Below are positions 1,378 through 34,550 of a stretch of DNA of 34,550 nucleotides, piece after piece; the stretch's first letter is position 1, and every line of letters begins with the position of its first letter. A program made the translations under genes and the position numbers. The stretch is from Puniceicoccales bacterium (lineage in GTDB: Bacteria; Verrucomicrobiota; Verrucomicrobiia; Opitutales; JAIRLG01). The stretch spans positions 1-34,550 of the forward strand of contig JAIRRP010000005.1 of the NCBI GenBank assembly GCA_031255915.1. The letters are read 5' to 3'. Below the pieces are notes generated by a model that was given only the letters and a program-made list of their open reading frames with translations, was not told where the DNA came from and did not search any database.

Positions 1378-1486
1378 GGTTTGCCGCCTTTGAGCCCTTC
1401 GGGCTCTGGCCCGCTACGCGGGCTGCGGTAAGAAAAAATGAAAGCTCCCGCTTTGCATTTTTTCCTTACCGCAAAGGCGGCAAACC
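1378..1486 (+). repeat. Family B four-helix-junction palindromic element, copy B1 (F orientation)
   Basis: Closing stem GGTTTGCCGCCTTTG/CAAAGGCGGCAAACC encloses three hairpins: GAGCCC-TTC-GGGCTC, GCCCGC-TAC-GCGGGC, and the long GCGGTAAGAAAAAATGAAAGC-TCCC-GCTTTGCATTTTTTCCTTACCGC. Confidence 0.85.
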
Positions 1487-3744: not shown

Positions 3745-3892
3745 CTAGAGGGTGTTGTCAAAATTAGACAGCAACCTCCTCATCTTGTTCCACTTATCTA
3801 ATAGGTTATGTTTCCTACGTGTCCTTTTTTTCATTCCATTTTTCTTCCCTCTCTTTTTCTCTTTGTCAATTTTTTTTGACGACACCCTTTAA
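3745..3892 (-). mobile_element. Family A MITE-like hairpin element, copy A3 (reverse orientation, one arm diverged)
   Basis: Ends read CTAG-AGGGTGTTGTCAAAATTAG ... TTTTTTTTGACGACACCCT-TTAA. The right half aligns closely to the reverse complement of A1. The left half is diverged. Confidence 0.7.
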
Positions 3893-4023
3893 ATCTTCTA
3901 CACTTTTCCTAGCTTTTTCTTTCGCCTTTTTCAGCCTTCTTTCTGTCCTTTTTCTAAAATACTTCCGCTCTTTTGAGCTTCTACACGGCATTACCTTCAG
4001 CGGCGTCTCCGTTTTTTCCGGCG

Positions 4024-4129
4024 GGTTTGCCGCCTTTAAGCCCTTCGGGCTTGCCCGCTACGCGGGCTGCGATAAGGAAAAATGAAAGCTCTCGGCTTTG
4101 CATTTTTCCTCATCGCAAAGGCGGCAAAC
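4024..4129 (+). repeat. Family B element, copy B2 (F)
   Basis: Same architecture as B1. The hairpin-1 closing pair is A:T (AAGCCC-TTC-GGGCTT). The long-hairpin base is GCGATAAGG/CCTCATCGC. The apical loop is TCTCG. Confidence 0.85.
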
Positions 4130-4229
4130 AAAACGAAGCCCCCGGCCGCTCAAAATTTCCACAATCCGAAACTCCCACAGTTGAATATCTCCCCACAATC
4201 CATTAACTCCTCAGAAAATCCATTCATCT

Positions 4230-7157: not shown

Positions 7158-7266
7158 GGTTTGCCGCCTTTGCGCCCAAAGGGCTCCTGGCACGCGATGC
7201 GGGCCGCGCTAAAGAAAAATGAAAGCTCCCGCTTTACATTTTTCCTTAGCGCAAAGGCGGCAAACC
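7158..7266 (+). repeat. Family B element, copy B3 (F)
   Basis: GGTTTGCCGCCTTTG ... CAAAGGCGGCAAACC. Hairpin-1 loop is AAA, hairpin-2 loop is GAT, and the long-hairpin base is GCGCTAA/TTAGCGC. Confidence 0.85.
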
Positions 7267-7508: not shown

Positions 7509-7586
7509 TGGGGTGGCTAACCGGGTTCGAACCGGTGACCCTCGGAACCACAATCCGATGCTCTAACCAACTGAGCTACAGCCACC
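7509..7586 (-). tRNA. tRNA-His (anticodon GTG) with encoded G-1 and CCA
   Basis: Hand-folded. G-1 plus acceptor GTGGCTG/TAGCCAC, discriminator C73, anticodon loop TTGTGGT, T arm ACCGG-TTCGAAC-CCGGT. Confidence 0.9.
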
Positions 7587-7696: not shown

Positions 7697-7805
7697 GGTT
7701 TGCCGCCTTTGCACTAAGAAAAAAATGCAAAGCGGGAGCTTTCATTTTTCCTTAGCGCGGCCCGCGTCGCGGGCCAGAGCCCTTTGGGCTCAAAGGCGGC
7801 AAACC
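7697..7805 (-). repeat. Family B element, copy B4 (R orientation)
   Basis: This is the reverse complement of the B architecture. It shares with B3 the AAA hairpin-1 loop and the GCGCTAA long-hairpin base. It has one G-T pair (GCGC/GTGC). Confidence 0.85.
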
Positions 7806-12045: not shown

Positions 12046-13386
12046 ATGAAACAGGTTTTCATCAAGACTTATGGGTGTCAGATGAATGAACGCGACACCG
12101 AAGCCATTCGCGGATTGCTTAAATCTCATGGCTATGGCATCACGGATGAGGTCCACAACGCCGATGTCATTCTACTCAATACCTGTAGCATTCGAGAACA
12201 AGCGGAAATGAAGGCCATTGGAAAATTAACCTCGCTGTTTCAGCAAAAAAAACGCCGCGATTTACTCCTGGGCGTCTTTGGATGTATGGCCCAACATCAC
12301 GGAATAGAGCTACAAAAACGTATCCCCGCCATTGACTTTATCATCGGGACTGAGAAATTACACCACATCGCGGATTACCTTGATCGGCATTTTGCCAACA
12401 CAGCAGTAAATCCCAAAGGCACCATCGTCGACGTCACGGCGGAGCAGGATTCACAGAACAAAATTTCCACTCGTGATCTAAAACCAGGGCAAGTTTCGGC
12501 CTTTGTGTCGATCATGCAGGGCTGCAATATGCACTGCAGCTACTGCATCGTCCCAACAACACGTGGCCAAGAGCGCTACCGTCCCATGAAAGATATTCTC
12601 GATGAGATCCAGTACCTCATCATTCATGGCGTAAAGGAAGTCACACTCCTGGGCCAGATCGTCAATCATTACGGACAAGGCACATTCCCCATGGTCGATG
12701 GTAAAAGCCCTTTCGTCCAACTCCTGGAAGCTATTCAAGGCCTGGATGGCATCGAACGCATACGCTTTATGTCACCACATCCCGTAGGATTCCGCCATGA
12801 CCTCATCGGATGCTTCGGACGACTTTCAAAACTCTGTCCTCATATCCATTTGCCACTCCAAAGTGCCTCTGATCACATTCTGAAGGCCATGAAACGTCCC
12901 TACAGCTGCGACATATTCCGACAGATTGTCCAGCGCCTTCGAGAACGAGTACCGGATATGGCATTTTCGACCGACATCATCGTCGGGTTTCCGGGAGAAA
13001 CTGAAGAAGATTTTGACAAAACCGTAGCTTTTTTTGATGAGATCGCATTCGACATGGCCTTTATCTTCAAATACAGTCCTCGAAGTCATACACTGGCCGC
13101 CTTCATGGAAGAACAGATCGCCGAAAGTAAGAAAGAAGAACGCCAACAAGTCCTCCTGAAAACTCTAGAGCGACATTCCTATGAGCATAATCGAAAACTT
13201 ATCGGGACGACGCAACAAGTGCTGGTTGAAGGAAAAGCGCACCGAGGAGAGAGCAAGTTCTTCGGACGCAATGCCCATTTCCGCAAAGTCATCTTCGACG
13301 GCCATCCCGAACTCATCGGCCAAACAGTCGGTATCATCATCGAAAGAGCCAGCACGACGGCGCTCTTAGGGAAGGTACTTCCCTAA
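12046..13386 (+). CDS. miaB: tRNA (i6A37) methylthiotransferase MiaB
   Basis: It has the N-terminal UPF0004 cysteines (YGCQMN, NTCSIRE), the radical-SAM CNMHCSYC motif and a C-terminal TRAM-like domain. It starts 4 nt after the lysS stop. Confidence 0.9.
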   Translation: MKQVFIKTYGCQMNERDTEAIRGLLKSHGYGITDEVHNADVILLNTCSIREQAEMKAIGKLTSLFQQKKRRDLLLGVFGCMAQHHGIELQKRIPAIDFIIGTEKLHHIADYLDRHFANTAVNPKGTIVDVTAEQDSQNKISTRDLKPGQVSAFVSIMQGCNMHCSYCIVPTTRGQERYRPMKDILDEIQYLIIHGVKEVTLLGQIVNHYGQGTFPMVDGKSPFVQLLEAIQGLDGIERIRFMSPHPVGFRHDLIGCFGRLSKLCPHIHLPLQSASDHILKAMKRPYSCDIFRQIVQRLRERVPDMAFSTDIIVGFPGETEEDFDKTVAFFDEIAFDMAFIFKYSPRSHTLAAFMEEQIAESKKEERQQVLLKTLERHSYEHNRKLIGTTQQVLVEGKAHRGESKFFGRNAHFRKVIFDGHPELIGQTVGIIIERASTTALLGKVLP

Positions 13387-13390
13387 GATG

Positions 13391-13417
13391 AGAGCCTTCT
13401 CTCTCCGAGAAGGCTCT
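13391..13417. terminator. hairpin between convergent miaB and bioY (putative bidirectional terminator)
   Basis: AGAGCCTTCTC-TCTCC-GAGAAGGCTCT, a perfect 11-bp stem, lies 5 nt after the miaB stop. The flanking T-tracts are weak. Confidence 0.5.
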
Positions 13418-13427
13418 TGAGAAATTT

Positions 13428-14081
13428 TCAATTTCTCGCGCCGTCGCGCCCCTCGTGTGGCAAAGCACCCGAGCCACTTGGCACATACCGTTCAAAATGA
13501 CGACTGATCGTCGCAGCGATGACGGCTTTCAGAGTATCCCCTGGCAAGAATGGCCAAAAACCCGCCATCAAAAGATTCCCGCGAGGAACAAAGTACGACA
13601 GAACCCAATTTCCGAGCGCAAAGATGATGATTTCACCGACACCAAGAACTGCCAGTGTCCCCCACCATGTTTTGGCAAATCCCCTTGATTTGAGCCGACT
13701 GATAACCTCTGCAGATACAACCATTCCCAACAAGTATCCCGACTTCGCTCCCCAAAGCACTCCAGCCGAAGCTCCCGCCAAAACCGGCAAACCGCAGAGA
13801 CCTAGCAACCAGTAAATGGCGACAATAGGCGTCGCCAAAGAACCCATAGTGAGCGCTACACAGAATACCCCTAAGCTCTGCCCCGTAATCGGCACTGGAG
13901 TCCAGGGCAAAGGTATCGTTATTTGCGCCATAAGATAAAGAAGGAATACGCCGTAAGCCAATTTCAGCCACCAAGGCATTGAAATGAGCTGAAGCTGTGA
14001 TCCCAATCCTCTTGGTTGTGTAACATATATTTCTGCATTTTTCATAATATAGTTGTATTTATAATTCGGACTTTCATCCAA
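13428..14081 (-). CDS. bioY: biotin transporter BioY (ECF S-component)
   Basis: ITIPLPWTPVPITGQSLGVF, GLPVLAGASAG, KSGYLLGMVV and PFLPGDTLKAV match conserved BioY blocks. The start is uncertain: TTG 14081, ATG 14045 or ATG 13979. Confidence 0.85.
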   Translation of the reverse strand: MDESPNYKYNYIMKNAEIYVTQPRGLGSQLQLISMPWWLKLAYGVFLLYLMAQITIPLPWTPVPITGQSLGVFCVALTMGSLATPIVAIYWLLGLCGLPVLAGASAGVLWGAKSGYLLGMVVSAEVISRLKSRGFAKTWWGTLAVLGVGEIIIFALGNWVLSYFVPRGNLLMAGFWPFLPGDTLKAVIAATISRHFERYVPSGSGALPHEGRDGARN

Positions 14082-14181: not shown

Positions 14182-14331
14182 CCAGAGGGTATCGTCAAAT
14201 AAAAGATTGATAAAGGGAGAAAAAGAAGGAGAGAGAAGGTATGGGAAAAAGGACACATAGAAGACTTGTTTCTGCATTCCACGCCCGCTCCATCTCTCTT
14301 TTGGTTGCCTGATCTTAATGACACTCTCTAG
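14182..14331 (+). mobile_element. Family A MITE-like hairpin element, copy A4 (forward)
   Basis: Ends read CCAG-AGGGTATCGTCAAATAAAAG ... CTGATCTTAATGACACTCT-CTAG. The terminal CTAG (14328-14331) contains the ftsH TAG stop. Confidence 0.8.
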
Positions 14332-16361
14332 GAATGCTTCGATTCTGAAGTATCTTCTCCCGGAGAGATCGATTCTATTTCCTGTTTATCCTGCTTTTCC
14401 TCCTGGTCTTTTTTATCAGCCGTATCATTTGATGCACCTTCAGTGGGATTGGGAGGTGATTTAGGCATTTCAAGCTCTGTTTGAAAATCCCCTGTTTGAA
14501 TCAACTCATACACTGAACGACCCTCAATGGTCTCATATTTGAGCAACGCATCCGCCAATTTTTCCAGTAAATGGCATTTTTCCAACAAGATGCAACGGGC
14601 CCGTTCCCTCTCTTCAGAGACAATTTTTAAAATCTCCAAATCGATCTTTTTCGCTGTTTCTTCACTGTAATTCTGCTCACGAGAAATTTCGCGGCCTAGA
14701 AAAATATGATCGCGATTATCTCCATAAGCGATGGGCCCTAAAGAAGTCATGCCCCAATCACAGACCATATTGCGCGCCATTTTTGTCGCCATTTTAATAT
14801 CCGACGAAGCACCACTCGTGACCTCCGTATCGCCAAATATCAATTCCTCGGCCACACGTCCTCCCATGGAACAACAAATACGTCCAAGGGCATTATGTTT
14901 CGTCGTGTTTAAAATATCCTTTTTCGGCAAAAACATCGTACTGCCAAGACTCTGTCCACGCGGAATGATCGTTACTTTATGGACAGGCAAATTACCGTCA
15001 TCGATCACTGCCTGGACGATAGCATGGCCTGCCTCGTGATAGGCCGTAATTTTCTTGTCCTTATCGTCCATGAGCTTCTTCCGCTCCCGACCATAGGCAA
15101 TTTTATCCCTCGCCTCCTCAATATCTTGACGTTCGACTTCCGTCTTATTGTGGCGAGCCGCCAAAAGCGCCGATTCGTTCAGAAGATTTTCCAAATCGGC
15201 ACCGGAAAATCCAGAAGTATTACGCGCCACATCTTCGAGATTCACATCCGAGACCATCTTGATCTTTTCCGCATGAACCTTGAGAATATCATGACGACCA
15301 TGAAGGTCCGGCAAATCGATCACCACTTGGCGATCAAAACGTCCCGGCCGCAATAAAGCATTATCCAAGACATCGGGCCGATTGGTCGCCGCGATAATGA
15401 TGACTCCCTCCCGACTGTCAAATCCATCCATCTCCACCAAAAGAGAATTGAGCGTCTGCTCGCGTTCATCGTTACCACCCCCTAAACCGGCTCCACGGTG
15501 CCGTCCCACGGCATCGATCTCGTCGATGAAGAGAATACAGGGAGCATTTTTTCTGGCCTGTTCAAACATATCGCGCACCCTCGCAGCGCCCACACCGACG
15601 AACATCTCGACAAAATCAGAACCACTGATGCTGAAAAACGGCACATCGGCCTCACCGGCAATGGCTCTGGCCAAAAGCGTCTTACCGGTTCCCGGAGGCC
15701 CCACCATTAGGCAACCTTTCGGGATCCTTCCGCCGATGTCCTGAAACTTTTTCGGACTTTTTAGAAAATCAATAATCTCAGCAACCTCTTCTTTGGCTTC
15801 GTCACAACCGGCCACGTCCTTAAGCGTCTTTTTTTTGTGATCAGGCGTAAGCATCTTCGCCCGACTTTTTGCAAATCCCATGGCATTGCGGCCGGCATTC
15901 CTGAGCTGACGGGAAAAGACGAAGTAGAAAATTCCAAAAATAATGAGTATCGGGAGCACACTTACCAAAATGTCGGTCCACAATGTATGTGAAGGTTTTT
16001 CTCTCCAATTAAGGGATGAACTCAGCAGTGCATTGAAACGATCACCCGTCAGTCTTCCCTGTGCCTCAAAGAGAACACTCTCCCTAGTTTCTCCATTCTC
16101 CAGCACCATGGGACGACCTAATTTGGCCTGGCCCTTGATTCGATACCATTCGGCTCCACGCGTTGGATCCGATTGAATAACACCCTGTAAAATTCTCCCT
16201 TCCTGTGAGGCCTGCAGCACTTGGTACGTCGTCCACTTTTGGACTTGTCCATGATACGGCGAGTAGCCTGACCATAGAGAGAAAATTCCAGCGATTACCA
16301 GGAACCAAATCGCCAATACTCTCAATTGGAATCTATTGAAAAAGAAATTTTTCCTTGCCAT
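14328..16361 (-). CDS. ftsH: ATP-dependent zinc metalloprotease FtsH
   Basis: It has an N-terminal TM pair, the AAA Walker [19 protein letters not shown], an SRH region and the zinc motif HEAGHA. The C-terminal tail is acidic. Confidence 0.95.
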
Positions 16362-17815: not shown

Positions 17816-17837
17816 TTCCTCCCGAGCTTTTCAGCCT

Positions 17838-17937
17838 ATTCGCTGTCTTTGGAGCCCTACGGGCTCGCCCGCACAGCGGGCTACAAGAAGGGAAATGAAG
17901 GCCTTCATTTCCCTTTTGCAAAGACAGCGAAGCGAAT
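17838..17937 (+). repeat. Family B variant, copy B7 (same architecture, different closing stem)
   Basis: Closing stem TCGCTGTCTTTG/CAAAGACAGCGA encloses GAGCCC-TAC-GGGCTC, GCCCGC-ACA-GCGGGC and the 14-bp palindrome AAGGGAAATGAAGG|CCTTCATTTCCCTT. The last is homologous to the AAGGAAAAATGAAAGC arm of canonical copies. Confidence 0.75.
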
Positions 17938-21506: not shown

Positions 21507-21741
21507 ACCATACTAGCGGATAGTGGCATAAAGTCAAATAGACAAGCGGCGACGAATACCGATTCTCAACTCTTTTTTCGAATCATGACACTCGGCGAAA
21601 GCTACACTGAGCCCGGACACCCGTATTTTTCTGAATCCTATTTTCACAAAATCGACCATGGCAATCATTTTCTCAAATCGTTCCAGCCGTATCATTTAAC
21701 CCTTTGGGACAACGACAAAACTCCCAAGCTCGGGAGCTCTC

Positions 21742-21850
21742 GGTTTGCCGCCTTTGCGGTAAGAGAAAAATGCAAAGCGGGAGCTTTCATTTTTCCTCAC
21801 CGCGGCCCGCGTAGCGGGCCAGAGCCCGAAGGGCTCAAAGGCGGCAAACC
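21742..21850 (-). repeat. Family B element, copy B5 (R)
   Basis: This is the reverse complement of the B architecture. In the F reading, the hairpin-1 loop is TTC, the hairpin-2 loop is TAC, and the long-hairpin base is GCGGTGAGG/CTCTTACCGC. Confidence 0.85.
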
Positions 21851-21890
21851 CGCCTCATCGACCGGAGACGCCCCAAGAACTTTCCGGAGC

Positions 21891-22039
21891 CTAGAGGATA
21901 CCGTCAAAATCAGGCAGTGAAAAGAGAGATGGAGCAGACGTGGGATGCAGAAACAAGTCTCCTATGCGTCCTTTTTTCCATTCCATCTTTCTTTCCTCTC
22001 TTTTTCCCTTTGTCGACCTTTTTTGACAACACTCTTTAG
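21891..22039 (-). mobile_element. Family A MITE-like hairpin element, copy A5 (reverse)
   Basis: Ends read CTAG-AGGATACCGTCAAAATCAGGCAG ... CCTTTTTTGACAACACTCT-TTAG. It aligns to the reverse complement of A1 and A2. Confidence 0.8.
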
Positions 22040-24392: not shown

Positions 24393-24485
24393 ATCTCTCT
24401 TTCTTGCTTAGATATCCTCTTTATTAACCACAGATCATTCAATTTTCACACAATATGTCAAAAACTCCCACGCTTGGGAGTATCC

Positions 24486-24594
24486 GGTTTACCGCCTTTG
24501 CAGTAAAGAAAAATGCAAAGCGGGAGCTTTCATTTTTCCTTACTGCGGCCCGCGTAGCGGGCAAGAGCCCAAAGGGCTCTAAAGGCGGTAAACC
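24486..24594 (-). repeat. Family B element, copy B6 (R), in the rpsO-pnp spacer
   Basis: Closing stem GGTTTACCGCC/GGCGGTAAACC carries a compensated G:C to A:T change. The long-hairpin base is GCAGTAA/TTACTGC. Confidence 0.85.
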
Positions 24595-24704
24595 CGCCCG
24601 TCGATCGTCGACGCCGTTCAAATAACACCACATTTCAAAATTCACGAACTCTAAAAGCTAGAAATTACTCCACGAACTCTGATCCTTTCGATAAAAACCT
24701 ACAC

Positions 24705-27800: not shown

Positions 27801-28054
27801 GCTCTCATACGCCCAAGATAGGAGAAAAAGCTCCACAGCGGCCAGTGGATCGATTTTACCGCCATCGAGCCATGGAATGATCCCTCTCGATACAAATTAC
27901 AATACGGAGGATTTTCACGCGCCGCAAAGTCGATGAACTCATGCATTATGCCCATGACATCGCCATGCTGATGTGCGGCGATCGGCCTATTTCCCCGTGA
28001 TTCGGGAATTTTCACGGTTTTGTGAAGCTTCCTCTTCTTCGAGAAATTCCAGCG

Positions 28055-28156
28055 CCGCGCGATGGCCCCTTTGCCCTGCAAAGCTAGCGCCTTCGCGAAG
28101 CGAAGGCGCTAGGGTCGGCGGCCGGCATAGCCGGCCGTCGACGGGCCATCGCGCGG
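28055..28156. repeat. GC-rich 102-nt four-helix-junction palindromic element (single locus in window)
   Basis: 14-bp closing stem CCGCGCGATGGCCC/GGGCCATCGCGCGG encloses three hairpins: CTTTGC-CCT-GCAAAG (6 bp), CTAGCGCCTTCGC-GAA-GCGAAGGCGCTAG (13 bp) and GTCGGCGGCCGGC-ATA-GCCGGCCGTCGAC (13 bp, one G-T). Only one unpaired nt lies between helices. Confidence 0.7.
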
Positions 28157-28344
28157 GAAAATCAACGGACCACCTCAAGGGCTACACCCAGAGGATATCT
28201 TATTTTTTTCAAGCATCGATGCGACACCATCGCCCGTTCCCCAAGAAAATCAAAATGATAGAAAATGCGCCATTGCCGCTCCCAACGCGATAATTTACGC
28301 CTTGACTTTACCATAGGGCCACGCAGATTTTCGATCCCATCATT

Positions 28345-28421
28345 GGGGTGGTAGCTCAGTTGGCTAGAGCGTCGGCTTGTCACGCCGAAGGTCGCGGGTT
28401 CGAGTCCCGTCCACCTCGCCA
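28345..28421 (+). tRNA. tRNA-Asp (anticodon GTC), CCA encoded
   Basis: Hand-folded. Acceptor GGGGTGG/CCACCTC, D arm GCTC-AGTTGGCTA-GAGC, anticodon loop TTGTCAC, T arm GCGGG-TTCGAGT-CCCGT, 3' GCCA. Confidence 0.92.
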
Positions 28422-34494: not shown

Positions 34495-34550
34495 TTAGAG
34501 GATGCTGTCAAAATTAGGCAACCCAAAGAGAGATAGAGGGGATGTGGAAT
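34495..34550 (-). mobile_element. Family A element, copy A6 (reverse orientation, truncated by window end)
   Basis: TTAG-AGGATGCTGTCAAAATTAGGCAACCCAAAGAGAGATAGAGGGGATGTGGAAT aligns to the reverse complement of the right arm of A2. Confidence 0.7.

Follow-up and report, generated by a model that had tools for sequence, protein, structure and literature searches.

The stretch of DNA analyzed here, called the window throughout, comprises the first 34,550 nucleotides (34.5 kb) of contig JAIRRP010000005.1 from a Puniceicoccales bacterium (GenBank assembly GCA_031255915.1). It contains a dispersed element of ~109 nt, Family B, which was first noticed at positions 1378-1486 and folds as a four-helix junction, with a closing stem that encloses three hairpins. 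We find that Family B is one branch of a previously undescribed set of intergenic four-way-junction repeats restricted to a few termite-gut Verrucomicrobia. In total, the observations outlined below make it, in our judgment, slightly better than an even bet that these repeats are a new modular family of nested palindromes of the REP/BIME/MITE kind, whose fold is needed for propagation or retention and is recognized mainly as DNA. Palindromes of the REP, BIME, and MITE kinds are common, yet their role and their spread are settled for few, and the present family is an unusually clean case. Its fold is fixed and its sequence free, pairing is kept at orthologous sites, and one copy is visibly made from codons of the gene beside it, so that selection on structure becomes separable from shared ancestry. 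With this family, one can test directly whether recognition of a bacterial repeat acts on a branched nucleic acid.

A family defined by architecture

The original prediction, made from the letters of the window, placed six canonical copies of Family B, at 1378-1486, 4024-4129, and 7158-7266 on the forward strand and at 7697-7805, 21742-21850, and 24486-24594 on the reverse strand; all six lie where it put them, save that the copy starting at 4024 ends at 4130 and not at 4129. The 15-nt end GGTTTGCCGCCTTTG, allowed up to 3 mismatches, has 13 matches in the window against 1.1 expected, and 12 of the 13 are the two ends of the six copies. The list was incomplete, however, as the window also holds a further related copy at 17837-17933, along with two junctions, 28055-28156 and 13352-13449, whose sequence is unrelated. 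At 1378, the predicted fold is borne out, with a closing stem of 14 to 15 bp, hairpins of 6, 7, and ~21 bp, and 0 to 1 unpaired bases at the junction. The folding energies, -71.9 kcal/mol for RNA (z = -11.0) and -47.6 kcal/mol for DNA (z = -11.2), are matched by no shuffle. Every compensatory stem change that had been listed appears in the alignment of the copies. The closing stem of the 24486 copy is GGTTTACC/GGTAAACC, compensated on both arms; the base of the long hairpin reads GCGCTAA/TTAGCGC at 7158, with one G-T at 7697, and GCAGTAA/TTACTGC at 24486; and hairpin 1 of the 4024 copy closes with A:T. The reported hairpin-1 loop variants TTC, AAA, and TTT are all present, and relatives additionally carry the complementary GAA. 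RNAalifold, applied to eleven copies, gives 46 pairs, 8 of which are changed on both sides.

Comparison loci were drawn from NCBI, JGI, ENA, and Logan metagenome assemblies (L002 to L026 are labels of relatives' loci), and the clade loci amount to ~155 kb. A covariance model built from eleven copies and run without filters recovers many divergent copies, both in the window and in loci of metagenome-assembled genomes (MAGs). A sequence-blind scan, which folded 7- to 8-mer inverted repeats lying 50 to 160 nt apart and kept those at least 75% paired and at -0.5 kcal/mol per nt or lower, finds nine elements in the window and 41 in the clade loci (about 32 of them in relatives), a density of roughly one per 4 to 6 kb. 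Exactly three hairpins are present in 41 of the 42 stable closed structures, and the remaining one is a single hairpin. Because unrelated GC-rich contigs yield mostly single hairpins in the structure scan, the scan is not biased toward three.

Each copy on its own folds to the common plan, at -58 to -88 kcal/mol, and the sequence that fills the plan varies widely. There are at least 15 distinct closing-stem sequences, each self-complementary, and about twenty unrelated sequences for the third hairpin. Divergent copies have closing stems wholly unlike that of Family B yet complementary (e.g., TGGGGGCTGGCTTT/AAAGCCAGCCCCCA and TATTCGCTGTCTTT/AAAGACAGCGAA), and the junctions at 28055-28156, 13352-13449, and L004:6795-6900 follow the same plan with no sequence similarity to Family B. 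Three motifs are conserved: GCYGNCTTT/AAAGNCRGC in the inner closing stem, GCCCGC-N3-GCGGGC as hairpin 2, and, often, AATGAA/TTCATT at the apex of hairpin 3.

The lineage restriction rests on several searches. A scan with the two-end pattern, with ends 65 to 95 nt apart and one genome per species, matched only short elements; five copies were found in the MAGs Puniceicoccales bacterium Pcl387_bin38 and bin136, Pcl387 being a lower-termite gut sample. The two nearest relatives by PNPase, at 83% and 80% identity, are Puniceicoccales MAGs too. In 67 kb of Puniceicoccales and Opitutae with 63 to 66% PNPase identity, there is no model match and no such structure. JGI metagenome and viral contigs gave no match to the two-end pattern, and the 10 matches to the superfamily pattern in JGI metagenome contigs are all chance, none being positive with the covariance model.

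Pairing at diverged and orthologous sites

What had been proposed from six copies, namely, that structure rather than exact sequence is kept, holds at two levels: subfamilies with entirely different closing stems and third hairpins share the architecture, and orthologous copies do likewise. When 27 copies are aligned to the model, standard pairs make up 96.9% of the cells, and double changes occur at 38 of the 46 pairs. In this alignment, which is fitted to the structure, double-change cells number 246, against 54 ± 6 in shuffles and 30 to 48 when the partners are slid; covariation is very strong. Wobble pairs are rare (24 G:T versus 1378 Watson-Crick).

The junction at 28055-28156 shares its site, between clpB and an MFS gene, with L022:6414. 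Three closing-stem pairs are compensated between the two (C:G>T:A, G:C>C:G, and G:C>A:T), as are two more in hairpin 2; the unpaired bases differ at 7 of 10 positions, and the flanks are unalignable. Between 17837-17933 and its ortholog L022:16324, there is one compensated pair and one change from wobble to Watson-Crick, and in the ortholog L007:16224 hairpins 2 and 3 have been replaced by different, equally well-paired ones. The dut-lysS spacer, a divergent promoter region, holds one junction each in L024, L025, and L026; the inner closing stem is alike in all three, while the outer stem, hairpin 1, and hairpin 3 differ, though the L025 and L026 flanks align. Taken together, these comparisons show that base pairing persists at fixed sites, that loops evolve far faster than stems, and that entire modules are exchanged.

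Genomic setting and signs of mobility

The copies are intergenic, occur in either orientation, and lie in convergent, tandem, and divergent spacers beside housekeeping genes. Roughly one in two of the larger intergenic spacers of these termite-gut Puniceicoccales holds such repeats, which create open reading frames (ORFs) that are probably spurious. Tandem contexts comprise 7 sense and 4 antisense cases, and about ten copies stand in divergent promoter regions, where they are paired as well as the rest.

Copies differ in presence between relatives. The rpsO-pnp spacer measures 312 nt with its copy in the window and 137 to 149 nt without a copy in L007, L008, and L022; the filled and empty spacers are too diverged for exact ends to be set by alignment, and the exact S15 protein of the window, looked up in order to find strain variants of this spacer, is not on record. 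In the pnp-glgC spacer, the window, L008, and L022 each carry a Family B copy in sense, and L007 carries an antisense copy of another subfamily. The copies L005:6615 and L005:5214 are ~95% identical and sit in unrelated flanks. No direct repeat indicative of a target-site duplication surrounds any of 32 copies, including this pair and the short-form copies at 7158 and 7697.

The element at a gene end

The reverse-strand junction at 13352-13449 spans the convergent 3' ends of a miaB-like gene and bioY. On the + strand, its closing arm at 13352-13363 (GCACGACGGCGC) and the adjacent hairpin arm at 13364-13374 (TCTTAGGGAAG) encode S-T-T-A-L-L-G-K of the miaB-like gene. These codons are conserved in the L024, L025, and L026 orthologs, and L026 has no junction in the ~290-nt spacer downstream of its ortholog; the partner arms at 13378-13388 and 13438-13449 must therefore be inverted copies of pre-existing coding sequence. 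The site is also a synteny breakpoint, with bioY leading to the miaB-like gene in the window and to recR in L007 and L022. This junction, at least, was put together locally, which points to templated inverted copying.

Several smaller observations attach to this site. The convergent ORFs 12046-13386(+) and 13428-14081(-) both run into the junction, the stop codon of the miaB-like gene falls in the hairpin arm that is an inverted copy of its own Leu-Leu-Gly-Lys codons, and bioY has a C-terminal extension of ~15 residues relative to its orthologs.

Recognition as DNA or as RNA

The original prediction left the choice between a structured RNA and a folded DNA recognized by a recombinase or HUH-type transposase; several features now lean toward DNA, and a weak sense-strand excess of G:U leans toward RNA. 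When strands are compared by element orientation, the count of G:T against A:C is 24 versus 15 (not significant), and 17 of 32 copies are more stable as the forward strand; there is no intrinsic strand. When the 19 copies in tandem contexts are compared by transcription, internal G:U pairs number 9 in the sense strand versus 3 in the antisense strand (P = 0.15), and the sense strand is more stable in 13 of the 19 (P = 0.17). This excess is a hint only, as a transcription-linked mutation bias could yield it. The conserved bases lie in stems, and the loops are triloops of any sequence, including the complement pairs TTC/GAA, AAA/TTT, and TCC/GGA, a pattern that would fit inversion of hairpin loops at the DNA level. 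The stem-borne conserved sequence, the variable triloops, the equal folding of both strands, the copies in divergent promoters, and the lack of target duplication lean together toward recognition mainly as DNA.

A proposed model and its alternatives

In the model that we favor, Family B is one subfamily of ~90- to 113-nt nested palindromes, each with a 10- to 15-bp closing stem and three hairpins, that fill the spacers of a small Puniceicoccales clade. A factor whose gene lies elsewhere would copy them, now or formerly, within the genome, and the copies would insert without a target-site duplication. We posit that recognition most likely falls on the folded single strand, along with a few conserved motifs in double-stranded form (inner closing stem, hairpin 2, and often the hairpin-3 apex). 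Once a copy is fixed, purifying selection acting on the fold, template switching (hairpin-templated correction), or the two together would maintain its pairing. Copies exchange whole modules (hairpin 1, hairpin 3, and the outer closing stem), which makes the family a mosaic. We speculate that, whichever way a copy is transcribed, the same very stable junction forms and could act in a REP-like manner as a 3'-end barrier or RNase III site.

Several observations weigh against this model. Canonical copies are 81 to 95% identical within a genome, no higher than the 79 to 91% seen between genomes, and the family is therefore old, with no recent burst. GC skew is below zero in each 1-kb bin of the window (cumulative -4.9), which places the window in one replichore, and in this stretch of uniform skew the elements are oriented 5 forward to 4 reverse; such a lack of replication-strand bias is unlike IS200/IS605-type single-strand transposition. 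The window was said to encode no mobilizing enzyme, and its Pfam scan indeed shows no transposase; nor does a transposase appear in the Pfam scans of L002 to L004 or among the Pfam matches listed for L007 and L022 to L026. Among the genes examined in the window, L002 to L004, and L007, there is no mobilizing gene, whether for an HUH enzyme or for another candidate. Mobility is thus argued from comparison of genomes. The 13352 copy draws one closing arm and one hairpin arm from the conserved codons of the adjacent gene, so at least some junctions were built locally and not pasted in whole. Also, the slow evolution of stems relative to loops at orthologous sites is not what a purely selfish, decaying repeat would predict; each copy, it would seem, matters to the host.

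In a rival reading, the elements are mainly cis-acting RNAs that serve the host: junctions in 3' untranslated regions and operon spacers would block 3'-5' exonucleases, offer RNase III sites, or aid termination, and RNA-level selection would maintain pairing at each locus. Orientation would not matter, since both strands fold alike. Such a role, known for REP sequences (PMC3733652), agrees with the compensated pairing at orthologous loci despite diverging loops and flanks, with the tilt of tandem contexts toward sense, with the sense-strand excess in G:U and in stability, and with the small hairpin and T run that end the long form described below, in sense to the upstream gene at 1378, 21742, and 24486 and in L008. 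The strand asymmetry is not significant, however, and mutation bias linked to transcription is another possible source of it. Some ten copies, set between divergent genes, are perhaps untranscribed; no unpaired nucleotide is conserved, with triloops of any sequence; G:U pairs are rare; and the core has no U tract, any A/T runs reading TTTT-stem...stem-AAAA, which is a reversed terminator. We consider this reading unlikely, if serious. Host sites made of DNA structure strike us as quite unlikely: here, cruciforms or folded strands would be bound by a junction-binding or nucleoid protein, gyrase, or a replication factor, much as BIMEs bind IHF and gyrase, and the palindromes would be made by template switching at forks. 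The symmetric stems with almost no wobble on either strand, the loop-complement pairs that suggest inverted hairpin loops, the three-hairpin plan fixed whatever the sequence, the density of the elements, and the 13352 copy, in which 23 nt of conserved coding sequence recur inverted at a synteny breakpoint, all argue for it. On the other side, there is no known binding protein, and extrusion from the duplex is energetically unfavorable with closing arms 80 nt apart. Neutral template-switch correction, moreover, predicts stems that change as fast as loops, in paired doubles; stems are ~90% conserved where loops are ~70% different, and selection is therefore still needed.

A further thought, improbable but worth stating, is that the elements are specified by their architecture, with perfect four-way junctions of three capped arms made locally (on some occasions, at least, by templated inverted copying of host sequence) and kept by selection site by site for a junction-specific enzyme or for the RNA decay or termination machinery. 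If true, this would imply a new mode of propagation, by a Holliday-junction mimic, or a new genome punctuation in Verrucomicrobia. It seems to us very improbable that the elements form a multicopy family of genes for small RNAs that act in trans, or that they are what is left of a ribozyme or tRNA-like RNA. A compact, cloverleaf-like four-helix junction with strong covariation invites the idea, but only two tRNAs reach the Rfam gathering threshold in the whole window, as expected from the claim that no known Rfam family is involved, and at E ≤ 10 over 1180-1670 there are only microRNA-like chance hairpin matches, far below thresholds. Loop and junction nucleotides are not conserved, no promoter or terminator is shared, both orientations occur with strands that fold alike, and a junction with 0 to 2 unpaired bases leaves no room for a catalytic core; the tRNA-like or ribozyme candidate was rejected for want of a conserved unpaired core. 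Chance palindromes, an assembly artifact, or parts of a known larger element (an insertion sequence [IS] end, integron attC, or prophage att) are effectively refuted. All sources are metagenome assemblies, which would favor an artifact, but the same family occurs in independent NCBI, JGI, ENA, and Logan assemblies and control loci lack such structures. Housekeeping genes flank the copies, the core sites of attC are missing, and plasmid and phage BLAST searches gave no match.

Comparison with known repeat systems

The element was thought to be unlike described repeats, and the literature searched holds nothing comparable and no four-way-junction repeat family. The closest report (Di Nocera et al. 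2013, PMC3733652) notes that REP dimers may nest within longer palindromes, that Opitutus terrae, likewise in Opitutae, is rich in REPs, and that REP sequences can serve as RNA structures of the 3'-end-barrier or RNase III-site type. The present elements resemble REP/REPIN-RAYT systems and BIMEs in being high-copy intergenic palindromes in both orientations without target duplication, with long vertical persistence, subfamilies, and mosaics with other small modules. They differ in their unit, which is ~100 nt long with a closing stem and always three hairpins, whereas a REP is a single 20- to 40-nt hairpin or a doublet; in one architecture that spans families without sequence similarity; and in the lack of a RAYT gene among the proteins scanned. 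The core carries no conserved GTAG, and GTA+G arises only by chance in some reverse-strand hairpin-2 loops, which vary (TAC, GAC, TGC, TCC, GAA, and others); with the tag not conserved, GTAG-REPs were rejected as a candidate. The CGTC tag occurs only in the 5' flank module of the long form. Nor do the elements follow the REPIN plan of two inverted REPs forming one hairpin, as 41 of 42 have a closing stem and three independent hairpins.

Bacterial MITEs (Correia/NEMIS, ERIC/IRU, RUP, and bcr1) are alike in size (100 to 150 nt), terminal inverted repeats, intergenic position, frequent cotranscription, and stable folds, and Correia RNA is cut by RNase III. The 10- to 15-bp closing stem here does provide terminal inverted repeats, being both ends of the element. 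MITEs, however, carry target-site duplications and fold as one long imperfect hairpin, whereas these elements have no target duplication and their interior is three separate near-perfect hairpins with strong covariation. Recognition of structure over sequence without target duplication recalls the PATEs of IS200/IS605, other elements moved by HUH Y1 enzymes, integron attC, and the CTX phage attP, and a left-end motif, GGCG, conserved in 8 of 12 copies of the canonical subfamily is PATE-like. This GGCG belongs to one subfamily only and is part of the flank hairpin. PATEs have subterminal hairpins, no terminal inverted repeats, insertion 3' of a fixed target of 4 to 5 nt, and a strong strand bias with replication, features that these elements do not show (terminal inverted repeats present, orientation 5:4). 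Integron attC sites have R''/R' core sites and cassette arrays, neither of which these elements show, and attC was rejected: the ends GGTTTGCC/GGCAAACC do not fit RYYYAAC/GTTRRRY, and the adjacent housekeeping genes do not share one orientation.

Quasipalindrome correction by template switching is known from mutagenesis studies in Escherichia coli. It would match the paired "compensatory" changes made in one step, the perfect stems on both strands, and the inverted loops, and it could account for a hairpin arm copied from neighboring coding sequence. It is a mutational process and not an element family, however, and leaves the fixed three-hairpin plan, the motifs, and the slow stems unexplained. 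As for intrinsic terminators, no T run follows the core on its 3' side; in some subfamilies, TTTT lies 5' and AAAA 3', of reverse polarity; and the long form has a small hairpin plus TTT(T), in sense to the upstream gene in 4 cases. Overall, the elements behave like REP, BIME, and MITE repeats but fail the tests that define REPs (tag and single hairpin), MITEs (target duplication), IS200/IS605 derivatives, and attC.

Flank modules and composite units

A 5' flank hairpin, CGTCTC..GAGGCG, accompanies four of the six window copies (1378, 4024, 21742, and 24486) and several in relatives, and at 24486 it is compensated to CGTCGA..TCGACG. A 3' flank hairpin, CTCCCRAGC..GGGAG followed by a T run, is clear on three long-form copies and degenerate at 4024. 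At the first copy, the 5' module lies at 1358-1377 on the forward strand (a small hairpin, CGTCTC-N8-GAGGCG) and the 3' module at 1487-1511, also forward (GAGAG-CTCCCGAGCTTAGGAG-TTT, which reads as a small hairpin with a T run); an outer 8-bp stem encloses the 5' module, core, and 3' module together. The consensus terminator scan did not list the long-form flank hairpin.

A second dispersed repeat, Family A, is ~150 nt long, has terminal inverted repeats of ~19 nt (CTAGAGGRTGTCGTCAAAA), and folds as one long imperfect hairpin (-27.7 kcal/mol as DNA, z = -5.8). It occurs in the window at 1189-1338, 1520-1658, 3746-3891, 14182-14332, 21890-22039, and 34496-34550 (the last cut by the window end), in relatives at L005 2023-2090 and 3478-3557 and L004 3123-3153, and also in the bin38 MAG. 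The 1378 copy of Family B is flanked on both sides by Family A copies, and a 339-nt block at 1189-1527, made up of Family A, a spacer, and Family B, has an inverted counterpart at 21701-22039 (89% identity); the two families have thus been copied together at least once. The Family B copies do not appear to be fragments of a larger IS, although they are often part of a longer composite unit.

Individual copies and minor observations

The first copy, a long form, scores 117.6 bits with the covariance model. The second (4024-4130, 106.1 bits) has its 5' module at 4004-4023 and lies between the divergent genes glyA and xseA. The third and fourth are short forms, without flank modules: 7158-7266 (105.4 bits) lies downstream of a tRNA gene at 7512-7585(-), and 7697-7805 (114.1 bits), inverted relative to it, lies between that gene and lptF/G, so that the tRNA gene is bracketed by an inverted Family B pair. 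The fifth, a reverse-strand long form at 21717-21870 (3' module 21717-21741, core 21742-21850, 5' module 21851-21870), is downstream of pnp in sense, with orthologs at L008:4031 and L022:12454. The sixth, also a reverse-strand long form, occupies 24460-24613 in the rpsO-pnp spacer. The divergent member at 17837-17933(+) has the closing stem CGCTGTCTTTG/CAAAGACAGCG, lies in the prfA-tilS spacer, and scores 54.7 bits. The forward junction at 28055-28156 folds at -90 kcal/mol, its 13-bp closing stem enclosing hairpins of 6, 13, and 13 bp. The other tRNA gene of the window, 28345-28418(+), follows 190 nt farther downstream.

An apex of the type AAATGAA(R)...(Y)TTCATTT is common to otherwise different third hairpins (L002, L004, L007, L022, and L025; 1431-1445 in the window). 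The canonical apex reads AAGGAAAAATGAAAGC, which resembles a ribosome-binding site and start codon, and in the 1378 copy a 28-codon ORF leads out of the element. A small ORF starting from AAGGAAAAATG in hairpin 3 was considered and rejected, as its ATG is half of a palindrome and substitutions follow the structural pattern. In copies of the TGGGGGC-type subfamily (L003 7132-7234, L003 376-470, L005 4-105, and L007 14858-14960), TTTT immediately precedes the closing stem and AAAA immediately follows it, which lengthens the palindrome and has the reverse of a terminator's polarity. The ORFs 21585-21920(+) (111 codons) and 27973-28293(+) (106 codons) are mostly repeat sequence and probably spurious, and gene calls lie on or partly over an element at L024 10878-11072 (64 residues) and L022 12514-12639 (41 residues).

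The genes of the window are housekeeping genes (mnmA, glyA, xseA, alr, lptF/G, lysS, ftsH, prfA, pnp, rpsO, clpB, nusA, and infB), together with one for a DUF1559/N-methyl protein typical of the PVC group, and the part from 12 to 34 kb is syntenic with L022 and L007. Beside the lysS and miaB-like genes of a close relative, L026 5293-7095 encodes an ankyrin-repeat protein of 600 residues, which fits a host- or protist-associated lifestyle of these termite-gut bacteria.

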